This document shows, piece by piece, positions 13,718 to 60,002 of a stretch of DNA of 64,000 bases. Below the pieces are notes generated by a model. It was given only the letters and a program-made list of their open reading frames with translations, searched no databases and was not told the DNA's origin. Position 1 is the first letter of the stretch. Every line of letters begins with the position of its first letter. Source of the DNA: Eledone cirrhosa (Eukaryota); NCBI GenBank assembly GCA_964016885.1, contig OZ024740.1:233926001-233990000 (forward strand), in the 5' to 3' direction. The position numbers were made by a program, and so were the translations under genes.

Positions 13718-13804
<87 letters not shown>

Positions 13805-13810
<6 letters not shown>

Positions 13811-16139: not shown

Positions 16140-16322
16140 AGTTTTGTTGGTTTACCACTGGATAGAACTGGTAATTCCGTATGGTCAACCTCGATGTAAT
16201 ATTATGGAGAGCACTCAACGTAATACAACTCACCCGTCTTCGTTTAAGTAGTTGGTGGTGCGAGTACGGAGTTAATTATTATAAAATAACAGGAGGCTGG
16301 ACTGGTGTAAATCCTTGGAAGG

Positions 16323-20782: not shown

Positions 20783-20880
20783 AATAATAATAATGCTTTC
20801 GTTATTTATTTATTTTTTTTATTATTATTATTTTTTATTTTTTTATTTATTCATAAATAAATAAAAAAAAATAAAATAAA

Positions 20881-26459: not shown

Positions 26460-26560
26460 AATAATAATAATAATAATTGTTTCTACTTTTTTAGCACAAG
26501 GCCAGCAATTATCCCATTGCATTACTAGTACTTACAAGGACGAATGGTAACTCTGCGTTA
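26460..26560 (-). mobile_element. SINE remnant whose (ATT)n tail adjoins the 5' end of E2
   Basis: aataattgtttctact..gcacaaggccagcaatt. Confidence 0.7.
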
Positions 26561-34929: not shown

Positions 34930-36600
34930 GAATTAAGGAGTTGCGTTCTTTCTCCGAGAATCCAAGTTCAACCATACTTTGCTCCAGGCAGGCTGGTGTA
35001 CATATCCTGCAGCTCTAGTAATAGTAGGTATGACACTGAACGTAGTTGTGGATACAGGATATCATCCTTTTCTCATATCTGTCTTATATTAACATCGAGT
35101 GTGTTGCTAACTTCTACAACAAAGCATGTTTTCAAACAACAATATCAAGCTGGTCGTGTAATAAACATGGTTGTGGTTCTTTAGGTTTAGGTTCCACCAA
35201 TATTCCTTTGAACCATAAATCTCTATTCATTCCTTTCTATCTGTTCTTATTTACGTCTTCCGTAACGCATTTTAGATAGTTCTGGTTATCACATCATGTC
35301 TTATACGAAGGTAGTAATAAGACAACATTATTCTCCTGGTGGAGAAAGGTGGTAGATTGGCAGTATCGGTAGAGGGTCGGACGCCATGCTTTGACGCATA
35401 GAGTTACGGTCCTTGCCATTCTGAGTTCAAATCCCGCCGAGGTTAACTTTTCCTTTCATCCTTATAGGGTCGATAAAATAAAGTACCAGTCACGCACTGG
35501 GGTCGATTTAATCGAATTTCCCCTCCCCCAAATTACGGGCCTTGTGCCTATATAAGAAACCATTATTCTCCTGGTGGTGATAATGTAAAACCAACATTCG
35601 TTGTCAGCTAATAGCTTTCCTCTTTTCTGTAATAAGCATATGATGGGAATTTCTTGTTGCTGGATTCAATGGAAGAATCATTCAAGGAGGGGTGTTATGA
35701 ACTTTTCAGAACTCCATATCAGGCTTTTACTGTCGCTCGTCCCTTCTATGGTCTGTGTTTATCGTTTCATGTTCGCATATACAACATTCTCAGTGAACAA
35801 ACTTATTTTGCTTGCGTATTGAACATTTTCAAATGTTCTTGGCAGAGAGATCTATGTCAGCTCTAATTTCATGTTTCTTCTCTATTTCAATTGATATCTA
35901 AACAATATTGTTATTTCCATCGTTGTAAACCACGGCAAGATGGATTATAACTTTTTCTTCTGTTTCTTCACCGCTAAAATCCGGCTAATGTCCGATATTG
36001 ATATGCATTTTAGATCCTGGCTATCCTGCTAATATGGGAAATATATCTTATTCACATTCCAATTCTTGTTAAAATTTCCAACAACACTGAGCAGCTTGCG
36101 AAGCCTTATATCCAGCTCATTCAGTTCTTGCATTGCTTCTTATCCCCTCCAATAAGCAATGTGGTGTACAATGCTTTGGTCAGGCGTTGGATAGCAGCTA
36201 CTAGTGGTTATGGGACTTTAGCTAACTATAAAGCCCCTATAATCCACCCATGGTTGTCCAGCCAAGCTATTGAAAAGATTATTTGGTTCTTTGCTGTATT
36301 TCCTGGGATCATTTTGTTATTTAGTAGCTGCTTCATACAGCATTATATGTCCTTCTTTCTTGCTCAAGTGTTATGATGTTATTGGTGGCATAATAATCCT
36401 GCGAGAACAGATTGAGGCACCCACTGTATAATTTGTACTGACTGTTCTGGCAGGCTAAAATCCTGTATCTACAAACTGTCTCTCTAAATTTTCTCTTAAG
36501 TGTTTCTGTTGATGTATAAAAGTGTTATCTGTTTTGCATTTCATAATCATAATTACATACACGCATGGTATCTGGATGCATTTTGTCTTGACAATTTCTT
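34930..36600 (-). mobile_element. Highly decayed R4/Dong-like LINE, interrupted by a SINE
   Basis: Minus-strand remnants IQQQEIP..KR..EC, HDQLDIVV, RKLLSVVGNF; boundaries approximate. Confidence 0.5.
35348..35567 (+). mobile_element. SINE (longer subfamily) with TSD cattattctcctggtgg
   Basis: Full element; flanking direct repeat begins with ATTATT. Confidence 0.88.
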
Positions 36601-37041
36601 ACCCTTGAATTAGTGTATATATATATATATATATATATATATTAATTCTTTATAATTATTTGTTGAGCAAAATATGCCGAAATTACTACTGTGACTGATA
36701 GTAGTGGCTAGGCTCTGTCTTAATAGCACCCCCACTCCAAGCTGATTAACCTCAGTGTCACGTGATTGATTCTTTTGAATTTGCCACTTGACCAAGAAGG
36801 CAGTGAATTTTTCAATGGCTTGGAATCTAGCCCCGCTCGCTTTTTCCATCCACTGAATTATTTTTATATAAGTTCCCAGTGTCCCCGCATTGCCTGGAAG
36901 CTTAGCTGAGAATAGACTCCCTGATGACGTAAGGCTTCTCTATAGTTATTACGTAACTATATTTATCCCCTTACAGAAACTAATTAGTTGGAGTGAAATT
37001 TTAGTAAGTAAGTCGATTTTCATAACTTTCTTATTTACGTC

Positions 37042-37098
<57 letters not shown>

Positions 37099-39060
37099 TA
37101 TGTATTTCTTTAGTAAGATTCTTGATGTGAAATCGTGTGTTGAAATCGATATTGTCATATTTGAGGATGGTCATGTTGCCAGTATTACCAAAATAAAAGT
37201 CTTCATTGTGTTGCTTGATTTGCCGGTTGTTTGCTTGTTTTTTTTTTTGTTAGTCAGTTGGTAGGTTGGTTGGTAGATAGGTTAGTTGGCTGGCTGGCTG
37301 GCTGATTTCTTGCTTGCTTGATTAATTGATTGGTTGATTGGTTGATTGGTTGATTGGTTGATGTTTATCTACCTACAATGCACCGATTTGATTTCGTCAC
37401 TGCATGTTTCGAATCACTTCAGTTATAAAATATTTTCTCCGCTTGTAGATTCGAAATAAATTTCTCCGTGGTATCTATTGACGATAAATAAGCTAACTCC
37501 CCAATGTCACTCTATATTGTAGCTATTTATAAGTAAGTGAAATGTAGCTCATTCCAGCAATGATGTCTCTTTACAACAGTATTATGTGTGCTGCCTTATA
37601 TAGAGAATTGAATGAACAGTTTAAATCAGTGAACCATCTCCATATAGAAAGTATCTCTTATGAAAGATAAGATACCTTCCTAAAATGCATGAGATCTGTT
37701 TAATATATACTTCAATATTTCATTTGTTTATAATAGAGACCACAAAGGAGCCCCTAAGTGGCTGCTCGACCTGCTGGAAATAGCAGCTAAATCACTAACT
37801 AAAGTACATAGTATTGATTTAAAAAGGGGAGGGGGAAAAAGTCAATTTTGATAGTGTACTCCTAGATACACAAAGCAAAAAAAAATGCAGGGTTATGATG
37901 AAATAGTTTTAATCACATGTCTGCTCAGTCATCGTTGACTATAGGTCGAAACAACACAAAACAATTACGGCATTATATATTAGTTGGTTAGCACTTTCCA
38001 ACAGTTCGTCTTTACACAAAGTTACTCTGCATCAATCCATAGTAGTTATTTACAAAATAGTGTATTACTTCTGTACCGGTACGCGGATAGGTACACAGAG
38101 GCATGGGAAAATAAATATATTTCATCTCCCCATAATTGAGTGTATTTCTGATGGTGTGAAATCTCGACTTTTTGTTAGGTAAACAGAAACATTTCAAATC
38201 GTTAAAGTCAACTATACGATTACCTTTCTGAGTTTTGAATCATTTCACTGCAGTTTTGCCAACACTGATCTTCGTTAAAGTATAAAAGTCAATATGTAAT
38301 TAGAATATACTTGCTATCAAAAGAATTTTATTTCCCAAACACCTCATTTTACCAATACATGGGAAATAATTCATATAGGCAAAGGGAGATAACTTTTATT
38401 CAAGGGAGAAAATTCTGGCTTTTTTTTTTTACCCATTTCTAGGCAAATTGTTACAGTTTGAGTTGGCGAATAGTAAATCATGCATTTGTAACAGTGAAAT
38501 ATATTTTATACCGTAAGAAAAATTACTCTAACAAATTAAGTAGAACCATTCGTCAGAGAGATGCGTTGTTTTATAGATGTTGCAGAAGACTTTGTACTTT
38601 CTTGGTGATTATATTGACCAATGAATTGATTCTAAACCTTGATAGTTACTTAACTTACCGATTCTGTAAAGATAAATGATTAGGGCATTATTATGTGAGA
38701 TTCGATCTTTTATATAACACAAACATACAAGAGTCGGATCAACAGAACAGCCCGCTTGGGAAATTAAGTTGCAAGTGACTGAGAAATCTACACACACGTG
38801 TACCATTAACGTAGTTCTTAGGAAGAATCATCGGGACACCCGGTGTGACAATGTTGACCATTTGAAATACGAGAGCAATATATTTTTGTCAGCTGAGTGA
38901 ACTGGGTCAACATGAAAAAAAATGTCTTGCTCAAGGCGGCAACCATTTCATGTACTCTTAAATAGAAGTCTATACTTGCTGCCCTCCCTTGTGTTCACCA
39001 ATAGGCATCAATTTTGCAGCTGACGAATGTACTATGCATACGAATATTAATAGATAAGAG

Positions 39061-40148
39061 TAATAATTGTTTCTACTTTTGGCACAAGGCCAGCAATTAT
39101 CCAGTACATTACTGGTACTTTATTTTATCGACCCCCCGTAAGGATGAAAGGCAAAGTTAACCTCGGTGGGATTTGAACTGAGACCATAAAGGGCCATAAC
39201 TCTTTGCTGCAAAGCATGGCGTCCGACCCTCTACCGATACTGCCAATCCACCGCCCTAGATAAGAGTAATAATGATTTGTTGATATTTTAATAATAGACA
39301 ATAACGTATCTTTTATCGCAACAACATCATCGTCGTCTTCGTCCTAGACATTGTTTCTAACATAGGAAAGAAGTTAGAAATGTTTTAAGAGTTTGTAGTC
39401 GATTAAATCGACTCAGTACTTGACTGGTATTTTATTTTATCATCCCCAGAAGGATGGCGGACAGAGATGACCTTGGTGGGATTTGAATTCACAAAATAAA
39501 CGAATGTAACTAAATGCCACACAGTAACTTGTCTGCCACTCTACCGATGTTGCTATTTATCTTAGTAATATTGTCTCTACCTTTTAGCAGCAATTACCCC
39601 AGTGCATTACTGGTGTTTTATTTTATCGACCCGGTAAGGATGAAAGGCAAAGTTAACCTCGGCAGGATTTGAACTCAGAACATAAAAGGACATAACTATG
39701 CTGGAAAGCATAGTGTTCGCCTCTCTACCGATACTGCCAATCTACCCCCTAAACCATGTTAATAATAATAATTTCTTGTACGAGAATAAAGCTAGAAATG
39801 TTGAGGTGTTGAGGTAAGTAGACTAAATCAGCCACACTACTTGAGTGCTGCTATATTTTCTCGACCCCGAAAAGTTGAAAGACAAAGTTGATCTCAGTTA
39901 GATTTGAACACAGAACGTAGAAAGCTGTAACAAACACCACAAGACATAATAGTTTCTTATATAGGCACACGACCAGCAATTTTGGAGGAGGCGAAAGTCG
40001 ATTAAATCGCTCCCAGTGCGTGACTGGTACTTTATTTTATCGACCCCGTAAGGATGAAAGGCAAAGTTAACCTCGGCGGGATTTGAACTCAAACCGTAAA
40101 GGGGCGTAACTCAATGATGCAAAGCATGGTGTCCGACCCTCTACCGAT
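39061..40148 (-). mobile_element. Head-to-tail cluster of five SINE copies of different divergence
   Basis: Five tail-to-head units starting near 39061, 39350, 39565, 39770 and 39947; the first has TSD tagataagagtaataat. Confidence 0.85.
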
Positions 40149-40149
40149 T

Positions 40150-43100
40150 AATAATAATAATAATGATTTCATTTATTGGCCACACGGGCCGACATATAGG
40201 GGACAATACAAAAGACTGGGACAGTGGGGTTTTACAGAAAAATCGAGTAAACAATATGAATCACAATAACAAAGTAACAATAACAAAGTAACAATAAAGT
40301 ACCAGTAAAATTACAAGAAAAAATTTCCCCAATAGGGGGGATGACCACCTAGGGTTCGCTCAGGTACCCACCAGTCCTGAACGACCCGACGCTTCGAGAG
40401 CACCCTGGAAGGGCAGCCCTCTCCTCCTCAAATTTACCTACCTACAGCCGCATGACCAGAGTAGGCCCACTCACACGGGCCATTCTCGCCACATTCACCC
40501 ACCTTTCAGCAAATGTACTGTGGGAGGGGGGTGCAACACTTCTCTCTCCACCCTCACCTTCCTTTCCAAGTGAAACTTGAAAAAGTTGATGAGGGATTGG
40601 CCGAAGAGAAAAGTGTCTGTCTTCAGTCCTTTCAACCTCGTCCACCATACAACCTCTTTCGCTACTGCCACCAGACAGAGGAAAATTGCCTGCCCTTCCT
40701 GACCAAAAGAAGGCGGCGGGTCGATCTTCACTATGGACTCGGCCAATAGCCGGATCCGTTCTACACGCGACAACAGCTGTTCAACATAACTCCACAAGTC
40801 AGTAATGCACGGACACTGGACGAGTGCGTGCAGAACGGTTTCGTCGCTCTTCGCGCATCTCGTGCCTGTAGAGTTTATCTCGAACCTGCAGTGCCCCCCG
40901 GTAGCACTGCCAAGCGAGGGAATTTTGGAAATTATCCATCGTCCTCAGCTCGAAAGTCCTCCGGTACAGACTGGTTAGTTCGACTTCGTCGCACTTGCCC
41001 ACCACTAATCCTCTATAGAACTCGAGAGTGGAAGTCCCACTGACCGCATTGCCCGCCTGGTAGAAGGCAGTGAGTGCCTGGCAACATTCCAGATGCCAGT
41101 CACCCAGTCTCGGTCTCTTCTTGACCCAGGACTGCAGCTTAGTCAAAGAAACGAGCTGCGGAAAGGCCCATATGACAAACGGCGACCACACCTTTTTGCC
41201 GTTTAGGCAGAATATCTGGAGATGCCGCAGCCTCAGCACGTGCCTGCGCATCATTAGCCACGGCATGCCCAGCCCTCCACGTAGAGGGTGCTGGCAGCAG
41301 ATGGACCGCCTCACCAGCGGAACCTGACCCCTCCACAAGAATTTGAAGAGGAGCCACTCCAAGATTTCTTGGAGTGAACGGGGGCGCGAGGCGCGAACGG
41401 GGGCAAGGGACGACAGTCAGACGGTAGTAGATGACGGACGCGATGTACGCGTTCGCCACCTCCGCCCGACCTTTCAGTGATATCTTCATCCCAGCCCATT
41501 TCTGGGTGAGACTGGCTACCCTGCCCGTCACCTGGTCCCAATTCTTATCCACCTGGAGGTCTGGCCCGAACGAAACCCCTAGCAATTTTACGGGTCCGTC
41601 CGTCCAGCGCCTAACGACGCTGTTGGACGGCATGCACTTGCCTCTCCAGGTGCCGAGTTGCAAGCCCACTGACTTTTCCGGGTTAAGTTTTGCTCCAATC
41701 AACCTTTAATATTGCTCCAATAAGTTGGCGACTACCTCGATTTCTGAGGTGTCCGACACCATCACAGTGATAAGCCGACACTGTGATAAGCCGACACTGT
41801 GATAAGCCGACACAGCCTTTCCGCGTCCCGGTTCGAGCGGGATGCCCTGCAACAGCTCCAGCTCTAGCTACCCTCTCTATGATGTATCGCATTAGGTGGA
41901 GGTTGTCGTGTATGGTCCTGGTTGGGATTATGCAAGTTTGCGCCTCCCCAACCAAATGCCCGACGACAAGCGCCAACCTCTTCGCTAACACCCTGGCCAA
42001 AATCTTAAACTCTGTGTTGAGCAGAGTTATGGGCCTGAAATTGTCTAATGTGTCCCTCTTGTTCTCGTCTTTCCTTATCAGCGTTTCTACGCCCGGCTCA
42101 CAGAACTGGGAATACTCCCATTTTGCTGCCAGTTGCAGTAGAGGGCTTCCAGGAGATTGGAGAACAAGTCTGGCATATTTACGTAAAGCTCGTAGGGCAG
42201 ACCATCCCAACCGGGTGACTTGCGCCTCATGCAGCCGACAAGGGCATCCTGAATCTCGGCTGAAGTAATTGGCTTTTCGCAGCGCCCAGCGTCAGCCGTC
42301 GAGAGTTGCGGCAAGCCATCGAAGTAGGGACTGAAGTCCGGCACCATCTCTGACCCGCCACTTCCCCCGAACAACCGAGCAAAATGATGGCGAAAGGCCT
42401 CACACATCCTCTTGGAATCGCTCAGCTCGTGCCCGTCTCGGTCCGTCAAAAATCGAATCGTGGTTTTATTACCACGCTGCGCCTCTGCCACGCGGGCCCA
42501 TCGAACATCTTTGGTTCCCTCGTTTCTTAGAGCACGCGCCTCAGCTCTGACAATGCAACCTTTGTGTTTCGCATTGAAGAAATGGTCTAATGCCATTCTC
42601 GCCGCTAGCACGTCAGTTGCAATGCCACTACCAATAGCCTCGTCTCACTTATCTACCCCCCCCCCTCCTTTCTATTTTTCTCTAACGCTACTTCTTTGCT
42701 AAACTCTATCGACATTACTCTAATCTCTCTTTTGAGAGCCCCCCCCCCCCCCGACTATCTATTGTTGACGACTCCCCCGTCAACTTTTTCTTAACTAAAT
42801 TGTTGTTTAGCTTCCAGTAACCAGGTCCTAACCTACGCGTCTTATCTAGGTCGACCATACAGAACACAAACTTGTGATCTGCATAGGCGACCGTTTCAAA
42901 ACGTGGACAGCTTACACTATTTCTGTCTATTTTCCTAATGAATATCCTGTCTATATACGATTTAGATGACCCTATGCGGTTAGCCCAGGTCCACACTGGC
43001 GCATTAGGGAAATCTAGTCGGTACCTGTCAGACAGTTGGAACTGGCTGATCAGGTTCTTGAGGCTTTTGCACCCCCCGCTCCTATCGGATACTCCCACAC

Positions 43101-45728
43101 AGTCCCAGCGTGCGTCTAAGATACCGTTCCAGTCCCCCGCTAACAGTAAAGGGCGAGACGTACCCAGAAAGGCTTCCAGGCGTCTAAAGAAGTCCGGCGT
43201 CCTGCCCAAGTAGGGGCATAGACGGCCACCAGTCTAAAGGCACCACCTTCTTTATTGTTCACGTCCAGGACCACCAGCTTCCCGTCCGGGTCCCGGAAGA
43301 TCGACCTTACCTCGAGATCCAGGCCTTTCCTAAACAGCACTGCGACCCCCCCCCCATTCCGACCGGCTAACAGATGCAAAGATCTGATAGTCGTCGAAAA
43401 TGGGGGCTAGTGCGCGCGTGTCGGAAATCCTCGTCTCGCTGACGGCAATTACATCCATTTCTATAGACCTGAGGTCGTTGAGCAGGTGACCCTGCTTCCA
43501 GGACGATCCCAGGCCTCGAACATTCAAACATCCTACTCTTAATACGGCCATGTTGGCAGGTTAAAAAGAGAGAGAGGAAGGTTTACTTATCTTCCGGGCT
43601 CTTGTGAAGGTCGGGTTGTTCGACCTCCATAGTTGGTGGGGTTTCTTTTGGGAACCCCTTTAAAAGTCTTGAAGTGGATTTTACGTTCGGTGTTCCCACG
43701 TCCCGAGGAAAGCTGTCTCGTACTTCTTTGAATATATCGATCGACATTCACACCAGAACCAAATCTTCCAGCACGCGAAATGTGCTCGATTTAAAAATTT
43801 CCCCCTCTTTTTGTATATTTTCACTTCGTGCTACGAGGGCCATCAGTTCCTTGTTGGACCCCCTGACGAGCACGAAGTTTTGTATGTCTTGTTGGTGTGA
43901 TTTTATTTGTTTGCGTGGCTGTAGTGGTTTTGATGGTGTTGTTTCGGTTGTGTCTGTGTTTGTTGTGAGTGCGGTGTCTGTGGTTTCAGATGTTTGTGTG
44001 TATATTTGTTCTTGCGTCTGTTTAGGTTGTTTGCGTTTGGGGGATTCTGGTGATGGTGATGGTGGTGTTGATGTTGGTATTATTGGAGAGATGTTTGCGT
44101 GGGTGGTGTCTGCGTTTTTTATTGGGGGTGATTTTGTGCTTTGTTGAGTTTTTTTTTCTTTTTGTGTTTCCCTTTTTGTATTTTTGGGGATTTTGGTTTT
44201 CCCTCATCTTCACTACTGGTAGATGAGGGGTCTGTGTCTGTAAGTGTGTCTGTATGTATGTTTATGGTTTTATTGGTGTGTGTATTTTGGGGGGAGGGGG
44301 AATTTGACAGCTTTCCTCGTTTCCCCCCTGGGTGATCAATGTTGGTGGTGGTTTTGCCGGTGCTGGTGTTGGTTGTGGTCCTCTCCCCGGCGTCGGCAGC
44401 AGTGGAGCCTTTCGACCCCTTGCCTCTTTCAGCAGTTGAGGGCAGAAGGCTCGCAAATGGGTTTTTTCCCCCACAAACAAAACACTGCGGCCTTTTGCCT
44501 TCGGTCATAATGTGAATGACCGTCCCATTCTGAAGGCAGATTGTCTTCACATTCTCGGGCCTGATCTGGAGAAGGATCTCCAGGTCAACCCCGGACCAGG
44601 CCTCTCTGGTCGTTCTGGTCACTTCTATAGGGACGGTATCCGTCCCCTCCACAATCACACATCCCAGAAGCCACCACATGTCAAGTACTGGTGGGATTCT
44701 GGGAATGCGGAGACGGGCCGTTCTTTTTCCCATGTGGGAGGGGTACATTATGACCTTGCTGGTTTTGCAAGGAGTCATAGCGTGTTTCATAGCGAGGGCT
44801 TCTGACTTGAACAACACCGAAATGGTGCCGTACTGTCTGCCCCTCGCTATGTATTCGGTGTCTTCTCTGATGCACCTCAGCGCGACTTCGACATCTGCTG
44901 CCCAGTTGGTTTGTGCTGCCCAGTTGGTTTGTGCTGAGATGCATCTATAATGCACCGTTCTGCGCTCCACTGCCTCAATAGCTTCTACCGGGACAGTTAA
45001 GTTGGTCCAGGTTTGTTCTTGCTTAATCAGCTTCCATGCCTGGGCCAATTTTTCGTCTTTGTTTGAGAGGTCCATGTTGAAGCATGGCCTCTTTTTTGCT
45101 GCTGCCGCAGCGAAAGTGTTCTTTTTGTTTTCGTTGGAGGTGTTGTTGTTGTCGTTGTCGTTGTTCTTGTTGGTGTTGTTGTTATCACTGTCGCTGTTAT
45201 CAGTGTTGTCTTTGTTGCCACCGTTGTTCTCGGTGCAGTTGGTATTGTTGGTGTTGGTGCTATTTGTTTTCATGTTAGTGGCATTGATATTGTTGCATTT
45301 GTCATTTTTTTTTTTTTGTTATCTGTATTTTCGTTGTCGCTGTTACTGTCATTTTTTTTTAAAATTAGAGTTCTCATTGGTATCATTGGTGTCTTTGTTT
45401 ACATTGTTTTTGGTGGTGTTTGTGTTATCATTGTGTGTTAATTTCGCTGTAGCGCTCCTCTCAACTTCTACGTCGTTGTCGCACGACAGGAGACATATCG
45501 CTGGGGGGCGTGGCTCAGCCATGTTATTTTTTTCTTCTTAAATTTTTTAACATGTAAAAAAAGTTCAAATATTTGGGCCAAAAGGCCCAAATATTATACT
45601 TTCCCCTTCACGGGGCAAAGTCTAAGGGCTTATATCCCTTACACAACAAGAAATATTTAACATCAAATAATTTTAACAGGCAAATAAAGCGACTTACTGG
45701 GAGCGAGCAAAATACGTCCGCTTAGACC
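40150..45728 (-). mobile_element. L1-Tx1 clade LINE copy E3, full span, internal RT deletion
   Basis: ORF1 44119-45273 with CFVCG..HLRAFCP; ORF2 MAVLRVGCLNVRGL, GDWNG, GPGYWKLN; both ends flanked by (AAT)n. Confidence 0.92.
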
Positions 45729-45873
45729 AATAATAATAATAATAATTGTTTCTACTTTAGGCACAAGGCCAGCAATTACCCAGTACATTACTGGTACTTT
45801 ATTTTATCGACCCCGTAAGGATGAAAGGCAAAGTTATCCTCGGCGGGATTTGAACTCAGATCGTAAAGGGACG
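45729..45873 (-). mobile_element. SINE whose (ATT)n tail adjoins the 5' end of E3
   Basis: Tail, body and B-box match the family; head replaced by a templated insertion. Confidence 0.85.
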
Positions 45874-45931
45874 AAAACAAAAAGAACACTTTCGCTGCGG
45901 CAGCAGCAAAAAAGAGGCCATGCTTCAACAT

Positions 45932-48900
45932 AATAATAATAATGCTTTCTTTATTAACCACAAGGGTTTACACAAAGTAAGACATTAAGGACAGTACAGG
46001 ACAATACAGGACGGTACAAATTGGCATTTATGCGTGTAAAAAAAAAAAAAACAGAGGATGTAACAAAAAAAGAAACAACGAAAAATCCCCCAATAGGGGG
46101 GGGCGGGTCTTCCGTGGGACATTAGTGGAGAAAGCCCATTAAAAAAGCTACGGTGACCCTGACCACCAGGGCAAGTGCCCTCTCCCAGTTTTCCACCTTT
46201 AATTTACAGGCACATACTCAGAGTAGGCCTATTCACTCGGGCCATTCTAGCCTCTCTCACCCATCTTTCAACAAAATGCTGGGAAGAGAGCACTTCCCTC
46301 TCTACCCTGATTTTCCTTTTCGAATGAAATTTGAAAAAGTTAATCAGGGCATCACCGTAGAGGTAAGTGCTCGTCTTCAGCCCTTTCAAACGTGGCTAAA
46401 GGAAGAGGGCGGGGCAATCCTCACGATGGACTCAGCTGATAGCCGGATCCATCCTACACACGACAGCAGGTGTCCGACATAAACCCACAAGTCAGCAATG
46501 CTCGGACACTGGACGAGTGCGCGCAGGACGGTTTCGTCGCCCTGCACGCATCTCAGACATGTCCGGCTGACGACACCTCCATGCCTGTAGAGTTTATCCC
46601 GAACTGGCAAAGCTCCTCAGTAGCACTGCCAGGCCAGGGATTTCTGGAAGTTGTCCATGAAAGTTCTTCCGAAGAGAATGGCTAATTGATTTTCGTCGAC
46701 GCCTAGAGTTTCCCCAAGTACGTCGTCGCTCTTCCCCTCCATTAATCCTCTATAGAACGCCAAGGTGGAGTTTCCACCGATCACATTGCCCGATTGGTCG
46801 AGGGCTGTGAGCGTCTAAAGACATTCCAGTATCCAAGCACTCCCTCTCGGTCTTCGCTTGACCCAGGTCTGCAGCTCCGTCAAGGAGACGAGCTGGGGAA
46901 AGACGTGTCTAGCAAACGGCGACCACACCTGATCACCGTCGAGGAAGAGGTGGAGATGTCGTAGCCTGAGCGCGTGTCTGCGCATCATCAGCCACGGCAT
47001 GCCCAGCCTTCCACGTAGCGAGTGTTGACAGCAGATGGACCACCTGACCATCGGAGCGCGTCCCTTCCACAAAAAGCGAAAGAGCAAACGCTCCAGCGCA
47101 GTCAGGCGAGGCTTAGGACAAGGTACGACGGTCAGGCGGTAGTAGATGACGGATGCGATGTACGCATTCGCCACCTCCGCTCGAACTTTCAGGGATAGCT
47201 TCCTCTCTGCCCATTTCTGGGTGAGAGAAGCCACCCTACTCGTCACCTCGTCCCAGTTTTTGTCCGTCTGTAGGTCCGGACCGAAACAGACCCCCAGCAA
47301 TTTAACCGTTCCGTCCGTCCAGCGCCCGACAACGCTGTTGGACGGCATGGACCTGCCTCTCCAGGTGCCGAGCTGCAGACCCACCAACTTTTCCTGGTTG
47401 ATCATTGCTCCTGTCACCGCTTCGTATTCTCTTAGTGTAGTGCCGATCGCCTCGATGTGTTTGGCGTTCGACACTACTACGGTGACATCGTTCGCATATG
47501 CTGACACGGATCTTCCGCATCCTAGTTCGCGCGGGATCCCCCTCAACGTCTCCAGTTTGTGCAGTAATGACTCGAGAGTCAATACGTACGAGAGGGACGA
47601 GAGGGAACATCCTTGGCGGACCGAGCGCATGATGTTGAACGGTTCCGAAAGGTGACCGTTGACTCTCACCACAGAGCAGATGTCGCTGTGTATGTCAGCG
47701 ATCCAGCCTCTGAAGACGGGCCCAAAGCCAGCCGCCCTCAGGGATTCCGCCAGATAACGATAGTCGACCCTATCGAAAGCTTTCGACTGATCTAAATTGA
47801 TGAAGGACCCACCGTGCCAGGTTCCCTAGCTACCCTCTCCACGATGTATCGCATGAGGTGGAGGTTGTTGTGGATGGATATGTCTGGAATGGCGCATGTC
47901 TGTGCTTCTCCCACCAGACCACCAACGACAAGCGCCAACTTCTTTGCTAGCACCTTGGCCAAAATCTTGAACTCTGTGTTTAGCAGAGTTATGGGCCTGA
48001 AATTATCTATGTTATCCCCCTTGTTTGGATCCTTTCTCAGCAGCGCCACCGCTCCTCGGCTCACAGAGCTGTGAATTCTCCCGTTCTGTTGCCAGTTGCA
48101 GTAAACGTCCGCCAAGAGGCCTCCGAACAAGTCTGGCATCTGTATGTAAAGTTCATAGGGCAGACCATCCAAACCAGGCGATTTACCCCTTGTGCAGCCA
48201 GTCATTGTCTCCCGTACTTCAGCGGCTGTTATCGACTTTTCGCAATACTCCGCCTCAGTAGCCGAGAGCCGCGGCAGTCCGTCGAGGTAGGCACTAAAAT
48301 CCATCCCTCGATCCGGCGCGCCGTTGCCCCCGAATAGCTGAGCGAAGTGTCGCTGAAAAGCTTCACACATTTGCCCGGGATCGAGTAGCATGCGCCCGTT
48401 GTGGTCCACCAAAGACCGGATCGTGACTTTATTGCCACGACGCGCCTCCGCCACTCGGGCCCATTGAACGGCTTTCGTCCCCTCGTGTCTGAGAGCACGC
48501 ATCCTAGCTGTGACAACGCAGCCTTCGTGCTTTGCATTGAAGAATTGGTCAAGGGCCAATTTCGCCGCAAGTACGTCGGTCGCGAAGCCTTTACTAAGCG
48601 CCTCGTCTAATTTTCTAACTAGTTCTCCCTCTGCTCCATTTTTCTCTATTGCTAAAGCCTTACTAAACCTAATGGACTCTATTCTAATCGCTCTTTTCAG
48701 AGCAAACCACCATTTTGTTGTTGACGATGGCCCCAGTCAACGCCTGCTTAACTAATTCGCTAATCCGGTCTCTGTAGACCTTGCGCACTGTTAATGATGC
48801 GTTTAGCTCCCAGTACCCGGGTCCCTGTCTATGAAGCCTATCTAAGTCAACCTCACAGATCACGAATTTGTGGTCTGTGTAGTCGACTATTTTGAAATGT

Positions 48901-51552
48901 GGACAGTCTAAGCTAGACCTATCTATTTCCCTACAAAATACCCTATCTAGATATGATCTGGATGACCCGATGCGTTTTATCCATGTCCACATTGGCACAT
49001 TCGGGAAATTCAGACGGTACCTGTCAGACAGTTGAAACCGTCTGAGAAGGTTTGCGAGGATTTTACACCCTCCTCCCCTATCCGTTAATCCCACACAGTC
49101 CCAGCGTGCATCTATGATCCCGTTCCAGTCGCCCACTAACACTAAAGAGCGGGACGTTCAAAGAAAGGTCTCCAGACGCCGGAAGAAATCAGGCCGCCCT
49201 GCTCTTGACGGGGCATAGACGGCCACTAGCCTGAAAGCTGCTCGTCTCCACTGGTCACGTCCAGCACCACCAACTTACCTTCTGGGTCCAGGAAGATGGC
49301 CCGTATGACGAGATTCAAACCTCACCGAAAAACCACATGAACTCCTCCCCCCGATCCAGGACGGCTGGGAGATGAGTACACATCGTAGCCGCCGAAGATC
49401 AGTGCTTCGGAGATTCTGGTCTCGCTAATGGCCACCACATCTATGTTTAGAGACCTGAGGTCGTTGAGCAGGTGGCCCTGCTTCCATGCCGACCCCAGGC
49501 CACGCGCATTTATGCTGCCTATTCTGAATGAGGTCATGTTGAAAAGGAATGGAAAAAGATTGGAAAGACCACTTACCTTACTTCTCGTAGAGAAGGATGG
49601 TTTCTCCATCCTTCTCACAGCTTGTGGCCTTCTCCGGAAGGATGACCTTATAAATCCTCCTGGGGAGTGTTTGTCGGAAGTCTCCGATGTCCTTGGGGAA
49701 TTTTTGTTTTAGTGTCGTGTACGTTTTCTGTGTGATGCGAGTGATTTGTATGTGTGGAGGTGGTGTGAATTTTTGGGGTGTTGTGTAGTCTTTTTCTGAG
49801 ATGCTGGTGTTGTGTTAGATGTAGTGTAATAATTGGGTTTTTGTTCAAATTTAATACTGTGTAGTGTGTATCATTTTGGTTGTTTTGTTTTGTTTGCGTT
49901 TGTTGTGGGTTTGTTTCTGTTTCGCTTTTTAGTGATTTTTGTGGTGTTGGTCATGGTGGTTGTGGGGTTAATGATGGTGTTTGTGGTGATGGGGCTGGTG
50001 ATGCTGGTGTGGGTGGTGGCATAGCTGTCTTAGCGTTTTTATTTGTTTGCTTATTTGTTTCCCCCTGCATTTTGTTTTTGGAGGGTGAAGGAAGAGGATT
50101 TTTTTCTTTTTGGGGTTCTTTTTTCTTTTTCATTTTTCCTGATACCATTTCCCATTCCTCGTCGTCACAATCTGTCTCCAGTTGGGATAGGTCGGGGAGT
50201 GGAAAATCCTCCACAGGCGTTGGTTTTGGATGTGGCCTGGTGGATGGTGGAGGCGCTGGTGCTAATTCTGGCGCGGTGGGTGGTGGTGGTGTTGGTTTTG
50301 ATACTGTTGCTTCTGTTGTTGCTGCTACAGTTGTTGCTGCCATTTCTGCTACTGGTGGTTTTGATGGTTGAGTCACTGGGGTGGGTAGGAGAGGTGACCT
50401 CAACTTTTTAGCCTGAGGGCAGAAAGCCTTTAGGTGGGTTCCTTCACCACAACGACACACCTAGGCCTTCTACCCTCAATGATTACGGTTAGGTGGCTGC
50501 CGTTATAGAGGTCTATCACCTCCGGAATTTCCTCAATGTTGTTTTGGTCCGATTGGATCAGGAGTTCCATCCCATATCCGGACCAGTTCTCCTGCTTTTC
50601 TTTTGTTACCTCAATTATTTTCGTGTTGGCCTAGATGCCGGCGAGGACGGCAGCCATTAGCCAGGGAATTTCAATGGCCGGCGGAACGTGGGTCACCCTG
50701 ATTTTCACGAGTCTCTGACCACAATAGCTTGGGACGAGTGTGAACTCGTCACTTCTTAATGGAGCCATGGAGTGCTCTTTGGCTTCCTGTGGGGTTCCAA
50801 AGAACACGTCCACGGTTCCATATTTCTGCCTACATCTGATGTCAGTTTTTTTCGCCCACACATGTCCCAAAGCTTTTTGTATCTGGGACTCGGATGCCCA
50901 TTCCAGTCGGCGCGATTTTGTGTTTATCGTCCGATATAACACGGTGCATAGGCGCCGATGTTCCCTTTTATTAGAAGGGGGTGAGGCTGACCCTGTACCC
51001 ATCGATCTTTATACCATTTTCTTGGCTTCATTTAATTCATCCTGGCTTACCTCGATTTATTTGCTTTTCTTGGTTGCTTTGGCAAAGACGCATTTTGTTT
51101 TGAGCTGGTGTTTATGTTGTTGTTGTTATTCTCATTGTTGTTGTTGTTGCTGTTGTTGCTATTGTTATTTTTAGTTTCAGTTGTGGTGGAGGTGGTGGTG
51201 GTATCAGTGGTGTTCGGCATGGAAGAGTCGATTCTGGGTGAATCCATTTCGATGTCACGAGATAATAATTTATTTTTTTCTTTTGTTTCTGTTGTCGCTG
51301 TGGTGGTGGTGTGGATGGCGGCTTTAACACCTGCAGTTTTTGGTAATGGCAGGAAATGAATGTCAGCATGAGACAAATTTAAATTATTGCTAGTGCTTAT
51401 ATTTTTAGTGTTGGCAAACGTAGTAATATTTACAATGGTGGTGTTGGTGTGAGGTGTTAGTTTGCGAGGAAGGCTGTCAGCTTGGTGTGGCTGTGATTTG
51501 TCCATGATTTTTTCAAAGAAAATTTTTGTTTGATAATTATAAAAGTTTAAAT
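45932..51552 (-). mobile_element. L1-Tx1 clade LINE copy E4 (same subfamily as E1), 5'UTR clipped
   Basis: ORF1 51505 to ~49575; ORF2 EN/RT fragments (RSVRQGC, SAYANDV); 3' AATAAAGAAAGC(ATT)n. Confidence 0.92.
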
Positions 51553-54282
51553 CACAACATGCCCAGCCCTGCGCATAGAGGGTACTGGCAGCAGATGGGC
51601 CGCCTCATGAACGGAAACTGACCCCTGCGCAAGAATTTGATGGGGCCGGTCCAATTTGCTGAGGCGCGAACGGGGGCAAGGCACGAGGGTCAAGCAGTAG
51701 TAGATGACGGATACGATGTACGCGTTCACCACATCCACGCGACCTTTCATGGACAGCTTCCGCTTTGCCCATTTCTGGGTGAGAGTGGCTACCCTGATCG
51801 TAACCTCGTCCGAATTCTTATTCACTCAGAAGTCTAGTCCAAACCAGTCCCCGAGCAACTTTACCGGTCCGTCCGTCGAGCATGTGACGACGCTGTTGGA
51901 CGGCGTTTAGTTGCCTCTCCAGGTGCCGAGCTGCAAGCCCACCGACTTTTCCGGGTTAAATTTCGACCCCCTCAACTTTTCATATTCTTCCAAGAAGATG
52001 CCGACCACCTCGATTCCCAAGTCTTCCACACCATCACAATGATGTCGTCTGCATATACCGACAGCCCTTTCGCGTTCCGGTTCGATTGCGATGCCCTGCA
52101 ACAGCTCCAGATTCCACAGTAAAGGCTCGAATTTCGGCTGACGTTATCAGCCTTTCGCAGCGCTCAGCATCGGCTATCGAAAGATATGGTAGGCCGTCGA
52201 AAGCGTAGGGGCTGAAGTCTGCCACCTTTTTTCGACCCACCACTCCCCCCCCCCCGAACAGCCGGGAAAAGTGCTGGCGAAAAGCCTCATAATCTGCCTA
52301 GAATCTTTCAGCTCGCATCCGAATTGTGGTTTTGTTACCCCGCGGGTCCATCAAACAGTCTTGGTTCCCTCGTTTCTTAGAGCACGAACCTTAGCTCTGA
52401 CAATGCAGCCCTAGTGTTTGGCATTGAAGAAATGGTCTAATGCCATTCTCACCGGTAGCACGCCAGATGCAATGCCACTACAAATAGCCTCGTCTAATTT
52501 TGCTATCAGCTACCCTCCTTTCTATTTTTCTTTAACGCTACTTCTTTAACGCTACCTATGTATCTTACTCTAATCTCTCTTTTGAGAGCTCCCCACCACC
52601 TGTTGTTGACGACCCACGCACCCCTGTCAACGTTTGCTTAACTAAATTGTTGATCTGGTCCCTGTAAGCCTATATGCCCAAAATGTTCAGCTTCCACTAA
52701 CTAGATCCTAACCTGCGCGACTTAGAAATTACGAACTTGTGATCTGAATAGGTGACCGTTTGAAAGTGTGGACAGCCAACACTATTCCTATCTACTGTCC
52801 TAATGAATAACCTATCTATATACAATCTAGATGACTCTATGCGGTTGGTCCAGGTCCACACTGGCGCATTAGGGAAATTAGATGGTACTTGTCACACAGT
52901 TGGAACTGGCTGATACTTGAGGCTTTTGCACCCCTCGCTCCTATCAGTTACCCCCACACAATCCCAGCGTGCGTCTAAGATGTTGATCCGGTCCCCTGGT
53001 AGCAGTAAAAAGCGAGACATTCCCAGAAAAGCTTCCAGGTGCCTAAGAAGTCCGACCGTCCGGCCCCAGTCGGGGCGTAGACGGCCACCTGTCTAAAAGC
53101 AACACCTCCACTATTGATTCACGTCCAAAATCAACAACTTACCGTCCGGGTCCCGAAAGCTCGATCTTACCTTAAGATACAGGCCTTCCCTACATAGCAC
53201 TGCCACCCCACTTCCCATTCTCGGCCGACTAATATATGCAAAAGTCTGATAGTCGTCGAAAATGTGGGCAAGTGTAGGCATGTCGGAATTCCTGGTCTCG
53301 CTAACGGCAATCACATCCATATCTCGTGACCTGAGGTCGTTAAGCAGGCAACGCTGCTTCAGGCGCTGAACATTTATACATGCTACTCTTAGGATTACCT
53401 TGTTGGCAGGCTAAACGAGAGAGAGGAAAGTTTTACTGACCTTCCGGGAGCTTGTGGAGGTCGGGTGGTTTGAACTCCATGGTTGGTGGGGTTTCCCTTG
53501 TGAACTCCTTTAACAATCTTAAAGTGGATTTCATATTAGGGGTTCCCACGTCCCGAGGAAAGCTCTTCCTAATTTCGTTGTATGCACCGAGCAACATATG
53601 TACCATCGTTACGTCCTCAAGTATGTAGTGTTGGTGTTGTTGCGGAAGTGTTTGTATGGCGTCTGTGGTTTCAGATGTTTGTATCTGTGTGTGTATTTTT
53701 TGGGAGGCGGGGGAATGGGAGAACATTCCTCGTTTTCCCCTTGTGTTGGTCTTGCTGGTGGTGGTGGTGGTTCGAGTGGTGTTGCTGCTGTTTGTGGTGC
53801 TGCCGCTGTCGATGCTGGTTGAACTCTTCGTCTCGGCACTGACGTTTGCAGCAACGGATGCTTGTGACATCCTGCATTTTTGAGCTGAGGGCAGAAGAAT
53901 CTCCAAATCCATCCCGTGTCACTACTTTCTATCTGTTTTTAACGTCTATTAGGGTACTGCCGGTACCCTTCTCACCCACGCACCCCAGGAGCTACCATAG
54001 ATTCAGTCTTGGTGGGATCCTGAGAATGCGAACCATTACATTCCTTTTGCCCACGTGGGGCAAGTACATCAAAATGAGGTCCATTCTACAGGGGCCACCG
54101 AGTTTTTAATAGCAAAGGGCTCGATTTTGAATAGCACCGAGATGGTGCCGAATTGCTTGGCTCTTGCTTTGTCCTCTTTTGTTGTTGTCGCTGTTGGTGT
54201 TGTTCTTGGTGTTGTTGTTGTTGTTGTTCTCGTTGTTGGTGTTGTTTTTAATTACGTTGTGGCTCTTGGAGTTGTTGTTGGC
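51553..54282 (-). mobile_element. L1-Tx1 clade LINE copy E5 (same subfamily as E3), heavily deleted
   Basis: MDVIAVSETR EN fragment; RT fragments (KSVGLQLGTWRG); ORF1 C-terminus FPRDVGTPN shared with E3. Confidence 0.85.
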
Positions 54283-54494
54283 TACCGATACTGCCAATTC
54301 ACCGCCCTTATAATAATAATTGTTTCTACTTTAGGCACAAGGCCAGCAATTAACCAGTGCATTACTGGTACTTTATTTTATCGACCTCGTAAGGATGAAA
54401 GGCAAAGTCAACCTCGGCGGGATTTGAACTCAGATCGTAAAGGGACGTAACTATGCTGGAAAGCATGGCGTCAAACCCTCTACCGATACTGCCA
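54283..54494 (-). mobile_element. SINE head remnant plus a complete tandem SINE
   Basis: ctaccgatactgccaattcaccgccc followed by (AAT)n and a full copy. Confidence 0.8.
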
Positions 54495-55139
54495 AACAAC
54501 AATGATGATGATGATGATGATACAAAAATGAATTACGAAGGGCCCAAGATGTTGATGACAATACAAGAACGAATTACAACTTAAGGTTAGGTTTACATCG
54601 AGTAAAAATTGGCCACGCACAAAGGCTTCCCTCACTCAAAAATGTTTCAAGCACAGGCATCTCTTGATATGGAACATATTTCTTTGTGTGTGTGTGTGTG
54701 TGATGCATAGCATAGCTGCCTATGGGCAGGTTCCTGTCGAGATGAAGGGCCAGTGGGAGTGAAGGACCCCTAGCCTTTGTCAGGGCATTCTTCTATGAGA
54801 AGGCAACTCAGGAAACTGGGATAACTCCGACATAAAACCTGCGGCTCAGTAGTTACCGATAATGTTGATCTTTTCTTCTTTTCGTGTTATAGCTACTGTC
54901 GCTCAGAGAGTGCGATTGGCTCGGTGCACAGTCTTTCCTCACTTTAAAAATAAATCTTCACGCACAGGCATTGCACGATAGCATTAATTGATTATTAATA
55001 ATGTTATATCGTGCAATGGCCATACTCGATAACGAGCGGACCGACATCATTGATGTATGTATGTATGTATGTATGTATGTATGTATGTATGTATGTATGT
55101 ATGTATGAATGGGCGCCTGGCACCTAGAGTATGCTCAGG

Positions 55140-55340
55140 GGCTCAGGGCCCTCTACCAAGCAGAAACGGGGGATTGGTGGACGATACGTGCGCCGACGTT
55201 CTCAGGGAGATTCTGAGCGTTGAAGAGGACAAACTGGCCAGTCTGTTCGGGAGTACATTCCGTTCAGGGCCTATAGACAACGTCCAAACATCTCTGGCCT
55301 AACAGTGCTCTACCAGTTCGAGACAAAATCTATAGACATT
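55140..55340 (+). mobile_element. Orphan internal fragment of Tx1 ORF2 (region just before zf-RVT)
   Basis: GLVDDTCADVLREILSVEEDKLASLFGSTF..PIDNVQTSLA is homologous to the C-terminal ORF2 of E2/E4. Confidence 0.7.
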
Positions 55341-56385: not shown

Positions 56386-57446
56386 GAAGAACAAAAAAAA
56401 ACAAAACGAGGTTTCACATTGAGGTTTTCGTTGATTAGGTTCAGGTAGGAACATTTCACAGATGGGTGGTTCAGGTTCCCTATTAATGTTATAGACTCAA
56501 CTCCAGCCACAAACTGATAATCAGACTTGTTAATCAAGCAAAGCCAGGATCAATCTTAGATTGTGGCTGTAGTCGGGTCTATAACATTAATATGGATCCT
56601 GAGCCATTCATCTGTGAAACGTTTGTAACTGAGCCTAATCAATAAAAACCTCAATGTGAAACCTCGTTTTGTTCTTAATGTATACATTCTGTTATAGCAT
56701 ATTGGTACCATACTCAGTAAACCATAAAATCTAACGAATCACCTTCACCCCCCCCCCCACACACACACACACGCACACGCGCACACACACACACACACAT
56801 GTTTGGTCTTTTATATATACACTCCCACACTCTCTAAAACCATATTCCAAAAATAGAATTTCTTTTACAACACTATTGTTGCTAATCCCATAGAATTTGT
56901 CTCTAGCTTACAACCTCCCTCCCCCTCGCCACCACCATCTGAACTCTTGACCAGTCCATTAACACAATTGAGATACACACACATATTTACAGAATATTTC
57001 CTTTGTACCTAAAAACAATTTTGTTCTATGTGAAAAAAACACACCTACCAACACTACTGCTGGTACTACCATGACTACACCATTCTCTATACACAAGAAT
57101 TCCTTTTTCAGCCTCCTTCTCAAGGAAGATGAAAAAACTTACCTCAACACTTAATTTCAAATCTTTAATTTTTAGTTTTTAATTCTTATCAATTCCTTTT
57201 AATTGTAATATATTTGATTAGATGAATTTTACTAATACATCGAAACCGGTAATACTTTATATACATTATATACATTATAAAACTCTTTTTTAAAAGAACT
57301 GTCCCTCTCATTTTTTCAATAATGTCACTTTGACGAATTAAAGAAAGGATAAAAAAGAAAAGCAGTCCCTTAAATATATTTTCCGTGCTATTTCCAATTT
57401 CACCTTCTCTCTCTCTCTATATATATATATATATAAATATATCATT

Positions 57447-58019: not shown

Positions 58020-59310
58020 AGAGAACTTATTGTGTTGTATCAGATGAAAGAATGGTATTTAACTCATGTATTGGTACGTGATAGGGCCCACCCACAGCCC
58101 CGGCGGACAGAATGGAGAAGGCGTTTCCCCGGAGGACGGTAAGGGAGACGCGCTTGAAATGTCACTCCAACTCGCGGGGCTCACACCTGCGGCTGGCCAG
58201 CTCAGTGCCGATTCGCAGGCTATGGTTGTCTAGCTGCGTGCCAGTAGAGAAAGAGGGCAGAGCATAGAACCAGGCACCACTGTGGGGTTTGGAGGCCGCA
58301 CGAAAACAAGCAAGACGGTGCTGGTCGAGCTGGCGCGTGAGCCTGTCTGAGGCCAGGCTACACTGGATGGCATCCCAAGTGCGTTGGGGGGGACTTGACG
58401 TCAACAGGGGGAGTAGGAGGAGGGAGTCTACTGGGCTAAGTCCCGGCTGGTCCCACGTCTCACAGGCGGCCTCACGTTCTCTGAACACAGAGGGTTCTGT
58501 TGTGTTTTGAAGAACACTGCTGACGAGGACGCGGCACGAGGTTACCGACGAAAGATACGCTGGCAAAGCTAGTGAGATCGGGATCTGGAGGCCTAGGCCG
58601 CCATACCTGACCGGTAAAGTGGCCTTTTGCCACCCTATGTCGTCAAACTTGACGTTGCATATCCCCTCGGCTGCTGTTCGGATACAAGTATCGAGGTCAG
58701 CGAGGAGAGATGTATTGGTGTAGCATGGAGCGCTGCGGATTGTATAGAGGAGCTTGGGCATGGTGAAGGAGTTCCTCAGCAGAAAGAGAGCTGGGTGGCC
58801 GTCAATCAAACCCAGTCGGCTCGTGAGAGTCTGGAGCTGTTGAAGCCTAGAGCTGATGGTGGAGCGGATGGCCGGCGGGTGGATCGGTGACCCGACGATG
58901 AGGACATCCTCTTTGGGGGTCACCTGAACCTGGCGGAGAATGGACCGCACGTCCAAGACGGAGGCTGCAAAGCTCGCAGCATCGAGGCTGACGTTCACCA
59001 CCTCCGACTTGGCCAGGGCAGGAATCACCGATTGAAGGTCTTGGCAGACCGCCCAACGTATCATCATCCAGATACCAAACGTTGAGAGGGGCCGTGATAC
59101 TCCGAGCGATGTGGTCAATACCAAGGGCGAACAGGATGGGTCCCAAAGGGTCGCCCTGTTGGACCCCAGTAGCCGAGGGTATGACCGTATCAGCAGCTAG
59201 GAGCGTGCTCGGGGCTCCATATGACAGATAGGCCAGCAGGTAGGCAGAGGGGGCTCGGCTGAGGCAGGCCTCGAGCAGATGTTCCCAGCGTAAAGAGTTA
59301 AAGGCATTCC
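58020..59310 (-). mobile_element. CRE-clade non-LTR retrotransposon fragment (RT plus C-terminus, internally deleted); smaller 3' piece at 33170-33307
   Basis: AFNSLR, TGVQQGDPLGPILF, WYLDD, ATLPVRYGGLGL, GAWFYALPS, RVSLTVLRGNA. Confidence 0.85.
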
Positions 59311-59444
59311 TCATACATTTCATACGAAACAACAATTATTCAAAAGCAATAGATTAATTTATTCAACAACAAAAAAAATAGCGATAAATCTTTTTTAAAA
59401 CCTCTCAACGAACGTGGAAGAAAGTTTATTTACTATACACAATA

Positions 59445-60002
59445 ATATCCTCTATGAGGTCACTAAACCTGCTAGAAACAGCAGCTAACTCTCCCCCATA
59501 TCACACCCCTCCCTACTGTCTTAAATTTAGAAAACATATCCTCTATGAGGTCACTAAACCTGCTAGAAACAGCAGCTAACTCTCCCCCATATCACACCAC
59601 TCCCTACTGTCTTAAATTTAGAAAACACATATCATCTATGAGGTCACTAAACCTGCTAGAAACAGCAGCTAACTCTCCCCCATATCACACCACTCCCTAC
59701 TGTCTTAAATTTAGAAAACACATATCATCTATGAGGTCACTAAACCTGCTAGAAACAGCAGCTAACTCTCCCCCATATCACACCCCTCCCTACTGTCTTA
59801 AATTTAGAAAACATATCCTCTATGAGGTGACTAAACCTGCTAGAAACAGCAGCTAACTCTCCCCCATATCACACCCCTCCCTACTGTCTTAAATTTAAAA
59901 ATCACATATCCTCTATGAGGTCACTAAACCTGCTAGAAACAACAGCTAACTCTCCCCCATATCACACCCCTCCCTACTGTCTTAAATTTAGAAAACACAT
60001 AT
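59445..60002 (+). repeat. Minisatellite, six copies of a 91-93 bp unit
   Basis: Units start at 59445, 59536, 59629, 59722, 59813 and 59906 and are nearly identical. Confidence 0.95.

Follow-up and report, generated by a model that had tools for sequence, protein, structure and literature searches.

Same-strand LINE and SINE arrays at (ATT)n repeats in the octopod Eledone cirrhosa

Elements of the Dong type (R4 clade) insert into (TAA)n, and the telomere-bound families SART/TRAS and HeT-A/TART, which belong to other clades, build head-to-tail stacks by repeated insertion into or onto a repeat. Here we describe a long interspersed nuclear element (LINE), apparently of the L1 group, that lies in stacks with a short interspersed nuclear element (SINE) in a 64,000-nt stretch of Eledone cirrhosa DNA (contig OZ024740.1, positions 233,926,001 to 233,990,000; hereafter the window) and elsewhere in the 3.0-Gb genome. 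The five LINE copies of the window, E1 to E5, all belong to one family and are all broken. Its arrays, unlike those of the telomeric families, are scattered, at 1,500 or more sites. Dong shares with this LINE the microsatellite target and a tail that regenerates it; however, it has a restriction-like endonuclease and a single open reading frame (ORF), and is unrelated to E1-E5.

Microsatellite-specific Tx1 families are known, namely Kibi, Koshi and the crocodilian elements found in (TTCC/TTTC)n (PMC4494074, PMC4640811). Like the present family, they are LINEs of the L1/Tx1 kind with an apurinic/apyrimidinic (AP) endonuclease and insert into a simple repeat. As far as the accessible text of these papers goes, the present system differs from all of them in its mollusc host, its long same-strand stacks and a SINE partner with a shared 3' end; the pairing of crocodilian Tx1 with SINEU rests on shared targets (PMC4494074). 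It differs further from Kibi and Koshi, for which the comparison is by target and not by tail, in that the target, (ATT)n, is also the element's own tail. Mammalian L1 and Alu are similar in that the target resembles the tail, slippage lengthens tails and Alus occur in tandem (PMC3415434, available part). Relative to mammalian L1, our LINE has no poly(A), a much stricter target and an ORF1 whose CCHC knuckle is not of the mammalian type. Dong-R4 and L1-Tx1 are both listed as abundant or active in octopus (PMC13282606, PMC8967140), and the accessible portions of these two papers hold no mention of their targets. No report of an (ATT)n-targeting Tx1, nor of this target in cephalopods, was met in the literature covered, Repbase, Dfam and subscription papers lying outside that coverage.

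The LINE: target, strand and tails

The stacks are probably built by an L1-group LINE that inserts in phase in (ATT)n and ends in (ATT)n, which would be reusable as a target. Exact-pattern counts were run genome-wide for the heads and tails of a young subfamily, C, which was found by searching with the neighbour of one copy of the A type. Directly behind a perfect in-phase (ATT)3 stand 1,539 of the 1,577 exact C 5' ends, a proportion far above the 20% of flanks of one target type that PMC4494074, in its accessible part, uses to recognize target specificity. By comparison, in a background sample of 40 evenly chosen stretches of 10 kb each, (ATT)4 with up to one mismatch precedes only 153 of 799,040 positions (about 2 in 10,000), and AAT runs are rarer there than AT, ACC, AC, AG, ATC and ACAT runs. 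The pattern recurs in a sample comprising the best 30 genome matches to each of three subfamily 5' ends. These heads were picked by similarity of the head, not by flank, and numbered 87 once two window copies and one chimeric paralog had been left out; a script found at least three in-phase ATT units in front of 86, and the 87th lies behind an interrupted run. Interruptions near the 5' junction were also read as possible traces of a LINE target duplication, but they occur at about the rate expected from later mutation and so carry no information on it.

Neighbours share orientation. For contig 1, where the first 100 places listed were used, all pairs no more than 7.5 kb apart lie on the same strand (11/11 tail pairs, 17/17 head pairs), as against about half of those more than 100 kb apart (36/69 and 34/66, respectively). 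Both the choice of (ATT)n as LINE target and the excess of same-strand adjacency had been anticipated in the original prediction, made from the window alone, and both are borne out.

In the loci read, LINE tails consist of (ATT)n, and poly(A) of the mammalian L1 type was not met. The 3' run of young copies (n = 36) has a median of 15 ATT units, compared to 7.5 for the 5' run (p=9e-6). Older copies of subfamily A (n = 15) have a median of 5 units at the 3' side, and the longest ATT run in the background reaches 12 units. A pattern search for young 3' ends found 2,596, 74% of which (1,923) carry six units or more. Insertion of the LINE thus probably renews its (ATT)n target, the net gain being judged from occupied sites.

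Intact copies of subfamily C are present and have an open ORF1 (698 aa) and ORF2 (about 1,140 aa). In one of them, ORF2 comprises PF03372 (an N-terminal AP-type endonuclease) followed by PF00078 (reverse transcriptase, RT) and PF13966 (zf-RVT); fragments of such an endonuclease/RT ORF2 are present in E1-E5. The best relative of solved structure is human L1 ORF2p (E 2e-52), with R2 at E 1e-21, among references that do not comprise RTE, CR1 or the I group. The ORF1 translation holds a Cx2Cx4Hx4C motif (CCHC knuckle) and its Atlas neighbours carry zf-CCHC at 0.90-0.93; a Pfam scan of ORF1 found neither an RRM/CCHC-knuckle domain nor Transposase_22. ORF1 proteins of the RRM/CCHC type are tied to Tx1 in non-mammalian animals (PMC5203782, accessible part). 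Protein searches with the LINE returned no named Tx1 protein, the nearest named entries being proteins of unnamed function from Argonauta and Acanthosepion. These features fit a LINE of the L1 group that is Tx1-like and a candidate member of the Tx1 clade. The family fills about 5% of a 400-kb random sample and includes at least 1,577 near-identical young (C) heads.

Relations between neighbouring copies

Adjacent pairs of young full-length copies were picked by spacing only. Three of 24 pairs were dropped, the second copy being incomplete within the sequence retrieved; over the first 3 kb these are 98.5, 97.3 and 82.8% identical, without sign of a long identical tract. None of the 21 pairs in the main count is a whole duplicate. 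Their members differ by 22-76 mismatches (the median for non-neighbours is 56), which argues that stacked young copies are mostly independent insertions. In a stack of five young full-length copies (G000:C1:55422001-55458000, L255-L258), adjacent ones share no rare variants.

No long identical tract at all is seen in 17 of the 21 pairs. In four, the copies are identical over 1,356-3,082 columns from the 5' end, beyond which differences appear at the family rate; a long identical tract at the 3' end occurs in none of the 21. The same 5' identity is found in only 5 of 2,819 non-neighbour pairs (p=3e-7), two of the four adjacent pairs coming from one array. Moreover, in six young arrays landmarks or spacers lying upstream are repeated before each head and absent after the last tail. 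The repeated units are small interruptions in three arrays and spacers in the other three (286 and 885 bp at 100% identity, and at least 421 bp at 99.8%). The short landmarks could be ordinary target duplications, but the long spacers and the 5' tracts cannot. The simplest reading of the sequences would be that a new cDNA, having been primed in an ATT run next to a resident copy, switches to the DNA of this neighbour and copies its 5' part and flank; multi-step recombination or polishing error is possible as well. Human L1 cDNA is described as copying nearby DNA over less than 250 bp (bioRxiv 10.1101/2024.08.27.596794, available part), whereas the copied tracts here would measure 1.4-3.1 kb plus up to 885 bp of flank. 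Private mutations gave no significant indication of the direction of growth, the upstream copy having fewer in 12 of 18 untied pairs (p=0.24).

Arrays of the window and the SINE

Feature order and strand in the window were obtained by self-comparison and by reading both arrays. The larger array (39061-54495) is composed as follows.

39066-39257, minus strand: SINE, near full length, with a 17-bp unique target duplication (39051-39067, 39257-39273) starting ATTATT
39352-39548, minus: SINE, old and diverged (~27% mismatch relative to a family sample)
39570-39750, minus: SINE, 3' end with two ATT units
39772-39945, minus: SINE, diverged, then (ATT)4 at 39760-39771
39955-40148, minus: SINE of a second subfamily, 5'-truncated, directly behind the E3 tail
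40149-40163, minus: (ATT)5 run, the E3 tail
40164-45728, minus: E3, L1-group LINE of subfamily A; both ends intact, ORF1 and ORF2 broken, internal deletion in the RT region
45729-45746, minus: (ATT)6 run preceding the intact E3 head
45747-45870, minus: SINE, 5'-truncated
45871-45931, plus: 61-bp inverted copy of E3 ORF1 (45074-45134), 100% identical to the window's E3
45930-45941, minus: (ATT)4 run, the E4 tail
45942-51557, minus: E4, broken LINE with a subfamily B front, initial ~110 bp missing
51558-54281, minus: E5, older LINE fragment without 5' end or tail, with internal deletions; joint with E4 without ATT
54282-54307, minus: SINE head fragment, 26 bp
54310-54495, minus: SINE, with (ATT)3 at 54310-54318

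The second array and two isolated SINEs are listed below.

16322-20782, minus: E1, LINE of subfamily B, 5' end intact, 3' part gone; SINE fragment inside at 18969-19068
20783-20850, minus: (ATT)4 before the E1 head, itself behind a tiny LINE 3' end and an inverted stretch rich in AT
20884-26459, minus: E2, broken LINE with an A-like front end, more C-like ORF1 and ORF2, and internal deletions
26460-26533, minus: (ATT)6 run with a SINE 3' fragment, both preceding E2
12820-12973, minus: isolated SINE fragment, 18-bp target duplication starting ATTATT
35327-35576, plus: isolated SINE, 16-bp target duplication starting ATTATT

Much of this agrees with the original prediction. It gave the larger array as five SINEs, E3, a SINE, E4, E5 and two further SINEs, all on the minus strand, and the other as E1-E2-SINE; both orders hold, the additions to the prediction being the 61-bp inverted piece in the former and the tiny LINE tail before E1 and the SINE inside it in the latter. 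Likewise, the three intact LINE 5' ends (20782, 26459, 45728) read (ATT)n|GG, a SINE 3' end preceding two of them, the three SINE target duplications (12820, 35327, 39051) start with ATTATT in element sense, and neighbours belong to different subfamilies, 5-25% apart. The statement that the larger array is mostly joined by (AAT)n holds in part. By eye, five of its ten junctions have at least three ATT units and three have one or two, and the remaining two have none.

ORF2 diverges from that of subfamily C by ~5% in E4 (about 93-95% identity), 7% in E1 and 16% in E2, and E3 lies 4% from subfamily A. Subfamilies look modular (E1-E4 and L151): E4 combines a B front with a C-like ORF2 and tail, and E2 an A-like head with a more C-like body. 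The 61-bp inverted piece of E3 reads as a templated insertion later than the arrival of E3; because of it, the junction at 45871 must have been altered after that arrival. A small fragment of the same LINE family lies in the opposite orientation at 55171-55339 (plus strand). The flank of the SINE at 12820 (12750-12830) is copied beside the SINE inside E1 (18882-18962), with 95% identity over 188 bp, and replaces part of the target duplication of the latter as kept in its paralog; this resembles conversion between SINEs that lie 6 kb from each other.

SINE ends behave differently from those of the LINE. In a sample of 60 stretches chosen without regard to SINEs, 55 of 56 ends have no more than three ATT units; 35 ends show an upstream match of 10-20 bp, which starts with ATTATT in 26 (some matches are paralogous or off the junction). 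Genome-wide, six units are found at no more than 5,109 of 126,072 SINE ends (~4%), an upper estimate as the first pattern was shorter. The SINE inside E1 has a single ATT, and a 20-bp duplication in its paralog. SINE and LINE both start at ATT, but the SINE uses short sites with duplications of 10-20 bp. It is likely a passenger on short ATTATT sites that adds almost no tail. The proposal that each insertion adds a new (ATT)n tail therefore probably stands for the LINE (74% of young tails with six units or more) and fails for the SINE; the core (ATT)n idea fares likewise, and the one-sided copying of neighbours is the more unusual part.

A script identified 22 SINEs in front of LINE heads, about 15 of which, by eye, have ATT on their 5' side as well. 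Since ATT flanks them on both sides, such SINEs may predate or postdate the LINE, and the earlier interpretation of LINEs sitting in SINE tails as an order of insertion does not hold. SINEs precede 23 of 57 older heads and none of 30 young ones (p=2e-5; L052-L110). The SINE may have gone quiet, or may have entered the runs at old heads later.

The last 45 nt of the SINE align with LINE ends, with 4 (E3), 22, 27 and 73 of 2,000 shuffles scoring as well; no alignment was obtained with two other repeat-tailed elements. Both 3' ends fold into a short stem carrying the same five-base loop. At the second position of the stem, 172 of 191 SINE ends have a G-C pair and 73 of 78 LINE ends a C-G pair; at the third, the SINE has G-C, and LINE subfamilies have either A-T or G-C. 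The counts are of copies from three or four lineages, not of independent events. Folding z-scores are weak and mostly not significant. The 254 distinct ends present in 1.96 Mb of sequence, overlapping and enriched in LINEs, include no other LINE with this 3' end. Altogether, the SINE is likely moved by the LINE protein through a shared, covarying 3' stem-loop. Shared SINE-LINE stem-loops are known (PMC3747384, PMC3472496), and pairs of the stringent type similarly have their last ~25 bases in common, where a short stem-loop precedes the repeat tail (PMC3747384, PMC4176376). Such pairs lie mostly outside the L1 group, within which one monocot lineage is reported in the accessible part of PMC3747384. 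The "TX1" of PMC4176376, as far as its available text goes, is part of mutant names and unrelated to Tx1 elements. As to a tRNA-like SINE head, ARAGORN and Rfam gave no match in the window. For octopus SINEs, the accessible text of PMC4758252 gives no LINE partner.

Origin of the stacks, and other features

Many of the same ATT runs come, on the opposite strand, from an antisense retroposon that ends in (TAA)n. Its ORF has C-terminal CCHC/restriction-like-endonuclease motifs and weak matches to R2 (E 0.002-0.004), and its relatives, of ~1,130 aa, have an RT and no AP endonuclease listed. We tentatively take it to be Dong/R4-like. Ten of 30 young LINE tails run into motifs of its type, one motif family being tied to the ORF by translation. 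In the window, 10740-11072 gives a weak (28%) translated match to this retroposon and is an older relative. A further repeat, with an end unlike that of the SINE, ends in ATT runs and serves as target (L100, L101, L215, L217).

As for the origin of LINE targets, 52 of the 87 sampled heads are preceded by a LINE tail or a SINE end (29 and 23, respectively), compared to 5 of 22 background runs (3 and 2; p=0.003). Several observations weigh against insertion of the LINE into (ATT)n as a full account. LINE tails taken alone are not significantly enriched before heads (p=0.11), and young heads lie in young tails in 6 of 67 cases, matching the fraction of long runs that young tails are estimated to make up (5.8%, range 2.7-16%, resting on only 22 and 6 background runs). 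Since use of its own tails is about equal to that share, the LINE appears to make a real part of its own targets without extra preference. The long 3' runs could partly reflect a choice of long targets, and contigs of four public runs, set against one young insertion, yielded no empty-site joint across the element, repeat runs having been skipped. Young copies truncated at the 5' end are looser, with ATT at the 5' joint in three of nine (counting young copies whose 5' break lies inside the sequence retrieved; two further breaks are internal deletions and are not counted), and 3 of 30 young tails enter other repeats or unique DNA after one unit. The two window junctions without ATT are SINE fragment|E5, where the 5' end of E5 is truncated, and E5|E4, where a deletion has removed the E5 tail and the first ~110 bp of E4. 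The window, moreover, lies in local duplications, with 93-99% identical paralogs ~87 kb upstream and 100-112 kb downstream (duplicated parts, 35594-42788 and 1816-34520); for parts of the two arrays the identity is 94-99%, with paralogs at about 87 kb and 110 kb. One paralog is without four of the array SINEs and another has a doubled SINE-plus-duplication unit. As paralogs differ by deletions and by other elements before E1, old arrays have also been remodelled. Growth by positive feedback, as originally envisaged, is thus present, but it roughly scales with the supply of targets and a second retroposon has a share in it; copying and duplication also act.

Finally, the in-phase 5' junction could arise from pairing rather than cutting. 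In such a scheme AT-rich DNA would be nicked by an endonuclease of loose specificity, or broken by chance, and only nicks in (AAT)n would pair with RNA ending in AUU; the in-phase 5' junction would be set by an AUU leader with which the RNA begins, giving the same outcome by another mechanism. It would account for a SINE that tolerates one or two ATT units, with duplications of 10-20 bp reaching into unique DNA, while LINE 5' junctions are pure repeat, and for heads without perfect (ATT)3 at 2.4%, close to the 1.5% expected from later mutation alone. However, no examined LINE has a duplication of unique sequence outside the ATT runs, which implies that the runs pre-existed, and in related Tx1 elements specificity comes mainly from the endonuclease (PMC4494074, accessible part). 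We regard pairing as the rather unlikely alternative.

The local duplications of the window, the SINE loss and doubled SINE unit of its paralogs, and the upstream flanks repeated before each head in six young arrays could also be taken to mean that the stacks are mainly tandem or segmental duplications (by unequal exchange, be it between ATT runs or between copies) or assembly artefacts of few insertions, the more so as SINE arrays of such a kind are described in a bivalve (PMC11481361, available part). Yet window neighbours belong to different subfamilies, no young pair is identical throughout and most lack any long identical tract; the identity that exists is 5'-sided, whereas unequal exchange predicts 3'-identical partners too. 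Duplication as the main route is largely refuted, and we consider it very improbable. The original prediction held segmental duplication to be unlikely; stacked young copies are mostly independent insertions, and the window array does have duplicated paralogs nearby. Alternatively, each tail-head joint could stem from one event in which RT jumps to the 3' end of a second RNA and chimeras are co-inserted. All joints are indeed tail-then-head in a single orientation, and L1 template switching is described (PMC4494074, accessible part), but intact young copies stand behind older-subfamily tails, which are 78-95% identical to the reference, and behind plain repeats or antisense fragments of another retroposon. 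These must have been DNA targets, and we consider co-insertion very improbable.

With insertion into (ATT)n as the preferred reading, the steps would be as follows. The endonuclease would nick the (AAT)n strand, and the freed DNA end would pair with AUU repeats at the RNA 3' end and prime reverse transcription, slippage extending the tail. Each insertion would leave usable (ATT)n on both sides, so that later copies land in the same orientation. The SINE would ride the same protein via the shared 3' stem-loop, taking short ATTATT sites and gaining almost no tail, and the antisense (TAA)n-tailed retroposon would add to the runs available to both. Next to a resident copy, some insertions would end by copying the neighbour's 5' part and flank: unfinished cDNA would switch to the resident DNA and copy back to the nick, giving a full-length insertion without a second-strand cut. 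Deletion and local duplication would later reshape old arrays such as those of the window. The wider picture, in which the LINE's own tail is its landing pad and neighbours are repair templates, and the LINE also drives the SINE and competes with the antisense retroposon for the microsatellite, is one we hold tentatively.

A young, intact, high-copy element whose target equals its tail makes the feedback between insertion and microsatellite directly measurable. The one-sided identity of neighbours would be a natural record of how LINE 5' ends are completed, an open mechanistic step, and offers a route for front-end swaps among subfamilies; if true, copying in stacks would exchange promoters and ORF1s between them. 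The LINE is also the likely motor of an octopod SINE of very high abundance, and it probably causes repeats to pile up locally; it is, as a strict AP-endonuclease element, useful for comparison in work on target choice.

Elsewhere in the window, a 360-aa frame at 8810-9892 (minus strand) matches PIF1-like helicases (E 1e-15) and is probably a Helitron fragment. Long inverted repeats or hairpins, resembling miniature inverted-repeat transposable elements, lie at 8037-8676, 13802-14232, 15671-15942, 26581-26703, 26898-27134 and 56397-56676. A GC-rich 344-aa frame without a Pfam match (58162-59196) lies beside a 93-bp tandem repeat present in six copies at 96% (59428-60002).

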